A stretch of DNA of 22,625 bases from UHGV virus genome UHGV-0227363; one strand, given 5' to 3'. Positions 21,218 through 21,469 of this stretch are shown here, piece by piece. Numbering within the stretch: the first letter of the stretch is position 1; each line of letters starts with the position of its first letter. The notes under the pieces are model-generated. The model was not told the origin of the DNA. It worked only from the letters and a program-made list of their open reading frames with translations, and did no database searches. This stretch comes from a virus. The position numbers and the translations under genes were made by a program.

Positions 21218-21469
21218 ATGAAAATCAGAAATATTCTCGCTATCTCCCTTGCAACATCATCCTTCAGTTGCCTGGCATTTAAATCCTCGCCCAATGTGCT
21301 ACCAGGACCAACGAATCAACTAACTGCGGTAGAAAGTAAAATTATCGGACATTTTTATGCCCCACACAGTGCATTACCCGGAACAACCATCACAGGGACA
21401 TGTGACGCCTCCCCCGTCCCGGGATGCACCTGTCCGTTTTGTACTATGCTGCGTAGCCAAAACCGATAA
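21218..21469 (+). CDS. small secreted cysteine-rich protein (84 aa; predicted Sec signal peptide)
   Basis: MKIRNILAISLATSSFSCLA-FKS signal-like N-terminus; C-terminal C-x7-C-x-C-x2-C cluster; AT-rich; antisense to late operon. Confidence 0.5.
   Translation: MKIRNILAISLATSSFSCLAFKSSPNVLPGPTNQLTAVESKIIGHFYAPHSALPGTTITGTCDASPVPGCTCPFCTMLRSQNR

Follow-up and report, generated by a model that had tools for sequence, protein, structure and literature searches.

A prophage gene for a predicted exported cysteine-rich peptide, from a new Enterobacterales family linked to the zinc-starvation response

Enteric and urinary pathogens meet a major barrier in calprotectin, with which the host withholds zinc, and the enterobacterial answers described so far are ZnuABC, ZinT, ZupT and yersiniabactin. 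Cysteine-based metal-binding peptides are known from other settings: the metallothioneins SmtA and BmtA, with C-x-C-x2-C motifs in SmtA, are cytoplasmic and respond to metal excess rather than starvation, and the bufferins are Sec-signal metallophores of the ribosomally synthesized and post-translationally modified peptide (RiPP) class. Here, we describe a small gene beside the cos site of a prophage, at positions 21218-21469 of the virus genome UHGV-0227363. The whole stretch analysed (22,625 nucleotides (nt), called the window below) is a segment of an Escherichia coli chromosome carrying a lambdoid, phage-21-like prophage. As judged from its relatives, the gene (the candidate) is widespread and unannotated and belongs to a new family of Enterobacterales; here it resides in a prophage and lacks the operator that is usual in the family.

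The family resembles ZinT (YodA) and AztD in that its products are predicted Sec-exported, soluble periplasmic proteins, its genes have predicted Zur boxes and its proposed role is that of an accessory to zinc import. Family genes also lie beside aztDCBA or znuA-type operons, at six to seven loci. The differences from ZinT and AztD are nevertheless considerable. Neither library searches nor Foldseek, the latter with a poor model, revealed any relationship of sequence or fold; the mature family peptide has 63 residues, whereas ZinT has ~200 and AztD ~400; the candidate ligands are four cysteines instead of histidines; and the copy in the window is phage-borne and lacks a Zur box. Bufferin precursors carry Sec signal peptides, as the candidate does; unlike for bufferins, however, no MNIO/DUF692 or radical SAM gene is consistently found near the family gene. 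Among 26 members, no match to DUF2282 or to the metallothionein families of Pfam was obtained.

A conserved gene and its family

The initial annotation described an open reading frame (ORF) that covers 21218-21469 of the + strand and runs antisense to the late operon; both the ORF listing and the sequence bear this out. The product has 83 residues followed by a TAA stop codon (21467-21469), not the 84 residues first given. The N-terminus described earlier, MKIRNILAISLATSSFSCLA, and the arrangement C-x7-C-x-C-x2-C (cysteines 62, 70, 72 and 75) are both present, and a fifth cysteine, at position 18, lies within the signal peptide. The AT-richness reported relative to the structural genes is real and moderate only, with a GC content of 47.2% in the candidate ORF compared with 55.8% in the block of head and tail genes and 53.0% in the gene for the terminase large subunit.

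A Shine-Dalgarno sequence, AGAGG (21204-21208, + strand), precedes the ATG by 9 nt, and the block GAGG...ATCATCA(A/G)ATG is kept in the closest relatives of the candidate. When the DNA of the window was aligned with loci from Salmonella, Klebsiella and Citrobacter, similarity to the Salmonella and Citrobacter copies began at the ribosome-binding site (RBS) or ATG and ended at the stop codon. An in-frame ATG at 21149, which would give a product of 106 amino acids, was rejected as the start for want of homology 5' of 21218 in other contexts. Across four genera, pairwise ratios of nonsynonymous to synonymous substitution (dN/dS) range from 0.10 to 0.17 by the Nei-Gojobori method, with synonymous sites near saturation; substitutions pile up at third codon positions (24/14/46 over the three positions in one example), and of the six reading frames, only that of the candidate has no stop codon in any of the four genera. 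In other lambdoid prophages of Escherichia, a second allele with 72% protein identity stands in the corresponding place, near cos and antisense. For this pair of alleles, pN is 0.163 and pS 0.778 (pN/pS ~0.2), with the cysteine core and the cleavage site intact in both, and the copy in phage 21 is intact with a single substitution. Full-length homologs, homology bounded by the coding sequence, the low dN/dS and the sole open frame together indicate that the candidate is a genuine gene, far beyond a chance ORF.

Residues 1-20 (21218-21277, + strand) form a predicted signal peptide, MKIR / NILAISLATSSFS / CLA, as read from family alignments and the hydrophobicity profile, with a predicted signal peptidase I cut after Ala20. 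The positively charged n-region, the hydrophobic h-region and the motif A-x-A↓F support, at the level of sequence, the earlier proposal of a Sec-type exported cysteine-rich product. Throughout the family, A20 and F21 are nearly invariant and the site reads A-x-A↓F(Q/K); in distant members, the signal peptide ends in ALA↓FQAK, AMA↓FQAK, AWA↓FQAK or AAA↓FQSK. Cys18 and the surrounding SSF(S/G)CLAF are invariant among the first 18 homologs, and Ala stands at this -3 position in most distant members. Since A-x-A↓F is kept while Cys18 is replaced by Ala in distant members, the site is best read as one for signal peptidase I and not as a lipobox; on this alignment, Cys18 is simply the -3 residue of one clade, and the export signal is of the signal peptidase I type.

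The mature peptide (21278-21466, + strand) has 63 amino acids, a mass of ~6.6 kDa and an isoelectric point of 8.5, as calculated from composition. Its cysteine cluster, C62-x7-C70-x-C72-x2-C75 (21401-21442, + strand), is set in a core G-T-C-x-A-x-P-V-x-G-C-x-C-x-F-C-x-x-L-R that was derived from alignments of 26 and 56 members. C62, G69, C70, C72 and C75 are the only invariant positions of the mature part in the 26-member alignment; in the larger one, Arg79 is invariant as well. Near-invariant residues are F21 (the predicted new N-terminus), E39, Y47, P66, L78 and, in the 26-member alignment, R79; of the three residues E39, F46 and Y47 that are conserved among close relatives, E39 and Y47 stay near-invariant family-wide. 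An AlphaFold2 model suggests, at low confidence (predicted local distance difference test (pLDDT) score of 58.2), a helix over about residues 32-46 of the precursor and a short helix over the last cysteine.

Among 5.8 billion proteins searched, full-length homologs of 80-84 amino acids with 55-77% identity were found in Salmonella, Citrobacter and Klebsiella. A family profile, run exhaustively against 1.84 billion cluster representatives, returned only 31 clusters, and a second profile search, together with a genome scan for related loci that used a 12-sequence alignment, added Serratia, Erwinia, Pantoea, Dickeya, Raoultella, Kosakonia, Phytobacter, Superficieibacter, Dryocola and Rahnella. 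All family members found are Enterobacterales. Protein and hidden Markov model searches, which the initial annotation had proposed, thus led to relatives in this order only and to no known family: for the candidate, there was no match in Pfam (E<=1), NCBIfam or PHROGs, and none in PADLOC at E<=0.1, where its two neighbours were searched as well. The family profile matched no PDB sequence at E<=10, and Pfam searches with the 26 members at E<=1 gave only single-member, chance-level matches to DUF4148 (E=0.014) and PT-VENN (E=0.37). The literature search found no described Zur-regulated small cysteine-rich periplasmic peptide, and no zinc-limitation transcriptome in genera carrying the family. 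As delimited by these searches, the family is small, previously undescribed, restricted to Enterobacterales and mobile.

A resemblance outside the family may be mentioned here. A protein of 627 amino acids from the representative library (P0042), Asn-rich, with a ubiquitin-like N-terminus and probably eukaryotic, contains five repeats of the form P[IL]PGCNCP[KR]C[TS]xLR, which strikingly resemble the family core PVPGCNCPFCTMLR. The tri-cysteine unit may be an autonomous module in other proteins.

The candidate is present in 1,223 of 5,426 complete E. coli genomes, about a fifth, including CFT073, and also in phage 21. Intact copies of 83 amino acids occur on hundreds to more than 1,000 contigs, and frameshifted forms are rare (P0003, P0006, P0023, P0024, P0028 and P0031). 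None of the four annotated records inspected (three from RefSeq and that of phage 21) annotates it. The Prokaryotic Genome Annotation Pipeline (PGAP) makes no call at the locus, or calls a downstream + strand ORF of 59 amino acids, or an opposite-strand ORF of 60 amino acids that overlaps only the last ~26 nt of the candidate; the curated phage 21 record has two small late-strand ORFs in its stead, and the phage 21 genome announcement does not mention it (PMC9119081). Where GenBank submitters did call the gene, they named it 'hypothetical', 'uncharacterized' or 'secreted protein', and most of the BLAST matches across the 1,223 complete genomes carry no annotated feature. Because it is missing from the phage 21 reference and from the three RefSeq E. 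coli annotations, and because most matches are featureless, the candidate has so far gone uncounted in pan-genome, transcriptome and proteome studies.

Zinc-starvation neighbours and predicted Zur boxes

The relatives of the candidate are found in very different surroundings. In Salmonella salamae, S. diarizonae and S. enterica, the family gene lies in an island with a PPC-domain gene, bor and an omptin gene, and the island of the salamae loci also carries a SPATE autotransporter and an NEL effector. The Klebsiella copies are plasmid-borne and preceded by a cos remnant; one Citrobacter has the gene flanked by a fecIRA-like operon and narLX, and in C. koseri it is located beside icd, this copy (68% identity) being the nearest chromosomal relative. 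The icd gene is the attachment-site gene of phage 21. A divergent subfamily is present in S. enterica and C. braakii, in an island with TraT, DUF1090 and fimbrial genes. Given such widely differing contexts, the family coding sequence is, to all appearances, an autonomous module.

Neighbouring ORFs were clustered across 33 loci, and recurrent clusters were identified. ZnuA-family binding proteins recur at seven loci, AztD (a periplasmic protein of 413 amino acids; PDB 6CMK, E=7e-247) at six, COG0523/CobW proteins at five (the best NCBIfam match, ZigA, is below the curated cutoff), FecCD/Peripla_BP_2 importers at four to five, an ABC-3 permease at four, and FolE2/GCHY-1 and a HemB/ALAD paralog at three each. 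In Pantoea, the family gene lies between a dksA paralog with folE2 on one side and cobW on the other. Most members are chromosomal genes of plant-associated or environmental genera, situated in zinc-uptake islands. No MNIO/DUF692, DUF2063 or radical-SAM gene recurs among the neighbours at the 33 loci. A RiPP or bacteriocin reading was rejected because no modifying, export or immunity gene recurs nearby. Neighbours such as those listed are hallmark parts of zinc-starvation islands (PMC6103462).

Genes of the Fur family occur by cobW in Pantoea (L022, 6553-7005) and on a Klebsiella plasmid (L006, 4833-5285). The Zur and Fur models match them equally weakly (E ~1e-6, far below the cutoffs), and they were therefore not counted as Zur; they may represent a distinct Fur paralog of mobile zinc-starvation islands.

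In a first search for Zur boxes, the 200 nt upstream of the family gene at the 33 loci were compared with a background of 5,000 random 200-nt windows from the same loci. The gamma-proteobacterial Zur core, ATGTTATAnTATAACAT, was found with at most three mismatches at 16 of the 33 loci against 0.7% of the background, and with at most four mismatches at 20 of 33 against 1.5%. A similar picture emerged with TRWNAYRWTATAWYRTNWCA, the Zur motif established by experiment in E. coli (PMC6103462): with at most two mismatches, it was present at 17 of 36 loci (background, 0.9%), and with at most three at 25 of 36 (background, 1.6%). A positive control came from the ~400 kb that the loci comprise, where consensus boxes were found almost only before the family gene, aztC/znuA, aztA and cobW. 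The predicted sites span at least 10 genomic contexts with differing flanking DNA. In C. koseri, a strong predicted Zur box lies at -51 of the family gene, and in Salmonella, a box with two mismatches lies 51 nt 5' of the PPC-domain gene, which the family gene follows after 95 nt on the same strand.

Regulation of the chromosomal members by Zur is thus predicted, and according to a review, only a fraction of computed Zur boxes have been confirmed experimentally (PMC6103462). Taken together, neighbours and predicted operators make the link of the family to the zinc-starvation response well supported, on purely computational grounds. The initial annotation had missed this side of the family: by their neighbours and boxes, the chromosomal members look like Zur-regulon genes. 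As a separate observation, the near-consensus box TTGTTATAGTATAACAA before the PPC gene of the Salmonella islands (L003, 5453-6739; L024; L053) suggests a zinc-controlled, virulence-associated operon.

The prophage copy and the explanations weighed

A putative promoter or operator remnant of the window copy can be read at 21157-21176 (+ strand) from the sequence when it is aligned to allele 2 of the prophages and to the copy in Klebsiella. It comprises an extended -10-like element, TGcTATTAT (21157-21165), which overlaps a left Zur half-site, TATTATGT (21160-21167). Prophage allele 2 retains GGTTACGTGTTAACGTAACA, with three mismatches to the published Zur motif, whereas the window keeps only this left half-site. 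An unrelated, perfect 12-bp palindrome, TGTGCCGGCACA (21165-21176), follows the half-site and lies ~45 nt 5' of the start, where relatives have their Zur operator; it may be the operator of another regulator or a chance product of operator decay. A consensus scan called neither a promoter nor a terminator, so that promoter function at 21157-21176 and expression in the lysogen are inferred. The simplest history would be that of a Zur-regulated chromosomal gene that was captured beside cos and later uncoupled from Zur.

Our preferred explanation, which we put forward tentatively, is that the candidate encodes an exported periplasmic peptide of a zinc-limitation family, captured as prophage cargo, in which binding of Zn(II) by the four cysteines is favoured. 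Sec would export the 83-residue precursor, and cleavage behind Ala20 by signal peptidase I would free a soluble 63-residue peptide made of a probable amphipathic helix followed by the four-cysteine core. As 63 amino acids are too many for passage through porins, the peptide would stay in the periplasm, where the family would act during zinc limitation. The Cys4 cluster would bind Zn(II), and the peptide would buffer zinc or hand it to proteins of the ZnuA/AztC type; it would work like ZinT or AztD while being unrelated to either. The prophage copy, without a Zur operator, would be expressed in lysogens from its own promoter as a lysogenic-conversion function, in a unit that possibly includes the downstream ORF of 59 amino acids and ends at the hairpin at 21716-21742. 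Zinc binding is favoured over disulfides only modestly, on the grounds that the gene accompanies several unrelated Zur-controlled importers instead of one partner and that the cysteines are almost the sole invariant residues. The fullest version of this idea makes the family the first ribosomal, Sec-exported, cysteine-based zinc-capture peptide of the periplasm, a miniature zinc chaperone of the Zur regulon. Lambdoid prophages, phage 21 among them, would have captured it, freed it from Zur and carried it into about a fifth of E. coli genomes as a lysogenic-conversion factor that aids lysogens in the competition for zinc under nutritional immunity; as a whole, this version is unlikely to hold.

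A number of points weigh against the preferred explanation, several of them concerning the window copy itself. A Zur box is absent from its upstream region, where 6-7 mismatches (six to TRWNAYRWTATAWYRTNWCA) and a position-weight-matrix score of -2.8 do not rise above the background, no Zur site with at most three mismatches occurs anywhere in the 22.6-kb window, and a consensus promoter scan made no call upstream of the candidate. No zinc gene adjoins it, the neighbours being cos, the ORF of 59 amino acids and a gene for a TonB_C lipoprotein. The box is likewise missing from other mobile copies, those of the Klebsiella plasmid and of the S. enterica/C. braakii subfamily. The literature search found no expression or proteomic evidence for any family member. 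The AlphaFold2 models are poor, with a mean pLDDT of 47.5 for the full precursor (15 sequences) and 58.2 for the mature peptide (56 sequences), and Foldseek found no match for the model in the PDB. As to the chemistry, the known periplasmic zinc binders ZnuA, ZinT and AztD use histidine and carboxylate ligands, and four cysteines in the oxidizing periplasm more commonly form two disulfides; in the family, His50 is not invariant and no invariant histidine or acidic ligand is found.

One rival is a real possibility, if on the whole somewhat unlikely: an exported peptide with two disulfides (for example, C62-C70 and C72-C75) that binds no metal and would inhibit or modulate an envelope enzyme or protect the envelope, being co-regulated with zinc starvation, with the prophage copy supplying this activity constitutively. 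Besides the lack of an invariant histidine or acidic ligand, it fits this rival that the invariant cysteines of the exported product are even in number; oxidation by DsbA is the default fate of periplasmic cysteines, and mobile copies without Zur box or zinc neighbours suggest a usefulness independent of zinc. A precedent exists in PliG, a periplasmic lysozyme inhibitor and small member of the E. coli Zur regulon without a role in zinc transport, which was found with the motif TRWNAYRWTATAWYRTNWCA (PMC6103462). The candidate, however, has no sequence similarity to PliG, and no family library matched; searches of Pfam, NCBIfam, PHROGs and the PDB revealed no likeness to known inhibitor families, and the fact that the family gene adjoins unrelated Zur-controlled importers (AztABCD, the FecCD/Peripla_BP_2 type and a Gsi-like one) is more easily reconciled with general zinc handling. 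Decay offers another reading of the missing operator: a captured Zur-regulated gene beside cos, poorly expressed or silent, might be kept by linkage only, with the half-site as what is left of the lost operator. Neither the silent consensus promoter scan nor the neglect of the gene by gene callers in the inspected records would then be surprising, and occasional frameshifted variants do occur in databases. We nonetheless find such a hitchhiking remnant improbable, as intact copies abound and frameshifts are rare, the two alleles differ at 28% of residues yet show a pN/pS of ~0.2 and retain both the cysteine core and the cleavage site, the closest relatives share the RBS block, and the extended -10 is plausible.

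Two further readings start from the general appearance of the gene. A secreted toxin or bacteriocin-like peptide, acting on host cells or competing bacteria, is suggested by the layout of signal peptide, variable linker and cysteine-rich C-terminus, by the S. salamae island with its SPATE autotransporter, bor, omptin and NEL effector, and by the frequency of the gene in extraintestinal E. coli such as CFT073. The likeness to the heat-stable enterotoxins STa and STb that had been pointed out initially extends to precursor layout and size (~70-85 amino acids), and was not supported further: no enterotoxin or cysteine-knot toxin family was matched by the 26 members in Pfam (E<=1) or in the PDB (E<=10). 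The number and spacing of cysteines in STa and STb are unlike C-x7-C-x-C-x2-C. No export, processing or immunity gene is consistently nearby, no outer-membrane route for a peptide of 63 amino acids is evident, and members are mostly chromosomal, in zinc-uptake islands of plant-associated, environmental and non-pathogenic genera, all of which makes a toxin very improbable. Still closer to exclusion is an outer-membrane lipoprotein like Bor or Cor, lipidated on Cys18 and serving serum resistance or superinfection exclusion. SSFSC fits the permissive PROSITE lipobox pattern, Cys18 is invariant in close relatives with only Ser or Gly before it, and the candidate shares with lambda Bor/Iss, the textbook antisense moron close to the right end, its small size, predicted export, antisense position in the Rz-to-cos region near bor and lower GC content; in Salmonella, the family gene even lies beside a bor homolog. 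Against this stand the absence of a match to Lambda_Bor (PF06291, E<=1) and to PADLOC, the different slot, the existence of bor/iss as a separate gene in related prophages and the replacement of Cys18 by Ala in distant members with A-x-A↓F kept; it was on this last ground, provided by the exhaustive profile search, that the lipoprotein reading was rejected.

Surroundings in the prophage and meaning of the gene

The - strand of the prophage carries the late genes: Nu1 at 20340-20888 (PF07471, E=8e-86), the terminase large subunit at 18440-20410, and head and tail genes. The cos region at 21058-21099 was located from the alignment with the phage 21 record (OL657228) and its cosQ annotation. It comprises cosN (21058-21069), whose sequence AGGTCGCCGCCC is the reverse complement of the lambda-type cohesive end, and cosQ (21093-21099); the alignment to the phage 21 record, at its right end, starts at 21070 of the window with 99.5% identity, and the cosQ of that record is annotated at the equivalent of 21093-21099. 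The candidate lies ~150 nt from cosN, so that its location beside cos and antisense to the late operon, as noted initially, agrees with the phage 21 alignment and the strands of the genes. The comparison with the position of bor did not survive: in phage 21 and the CFT073 prophage, the true bor/iss lies ~1.2 kb further from cos, with the TonB_C lipoprotein gene in between, and in Salmonella, bor and the candidate homolog are separate neighbouring genes. The proposed moron character stands, in the sense of an independent accessory module that is also found outside phages: the gene lies between cos and the lysis/TonB_C region, is antisense, has a lower GC content and stands alone in chromosomal, plasmid and island contexts.

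Starting 61 nt after the candidate, an ORF of 59 amino acids (21531-21710, + strand) matches phrog_4843 over its full length (E=4e-47) and is annotated by PGAP. It may be co-transcribed with the candidate; beside the Salmonella and Citrobacter homologs it is absent, and it lies outside the conserved module. The annotations conflict at 21531-21710, as the phage 21 record has - strand ORFs there, CPT_21_75 and CPT_21_74 (21444-21626 and 21673-21795). After the 59-residue ORF follows a candidate terminator (21716-21742, + strand), a hairpin with a 12-bp stem, -19.6 kcal/mol, z = -2.3 relative to shuffled sequences and a weak U-tract, for which the consensus terminator scan made no call. A scan of 20800-22625 against Rfam at E<=1 found no RNA family. 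The prophage small RNA svsR (PMC12803456) was dismissed as an overlapping feature, its place being at the 3' end of cI.

Further along the late-strand accessory region, a lipoprotein with a TonB C-terminal domain is encoded at 21833-22207 on the - strand (PF03544, E=1e-12; TIGR01352). PHROGs labels the family of this lipoprotein, phrog_1267, as 'Rz-like spanin', in all probability wrongly; as a periplasmic TonB_C decoy brought in by a phage, such a protein could disturb TonB-dependent receptors. The 5' part of its gene is present in two copies head-to-head, as an inverted repeat of 130 nt with 100% complementarity (22019-22148 and 22496-22625) that reaches the end of the window. The + strand copy begins with MKRRLLLLFLLSVLAVGCSQ at 22486, whereas the - strand copy (ORF 21833-22285) lacks that start and has other upstream sequence; the arrangement resembles the outcome of inversion or recombination involving the right ends of two prophages. 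Elsewhere in the window, two lambdoid tail modules (1849-10349) meet tail-to-tail at a junction at ~6952-6989. The + strand module has a major tail protein (1849-2631), a tape measure of 1080 amino acids (3376-6618) and a truncated gpM-like gene (6611-6952), and the - strand module a tape measure of 853 amino acids (7788-10349), gpM (7462-7791) and a truncated gpL-like gene (6989-7462), whose product of 157 amino acids covers positions 1-142 of a 311-position profile. These modules, too, suggest recombination or inversion between two prophages.

The candidate may thus be phage cargo that assists in the handling of zinc, and not a toxin. If this is true, an exported four-cysteine peptide with predicted Zur control in at least 10 genomic contexts would constitute an unrecognized component of the zinc response of Enterobacterales; as it also travels on prophages, plasmids and islands, it would then be a mobile fitness trait.

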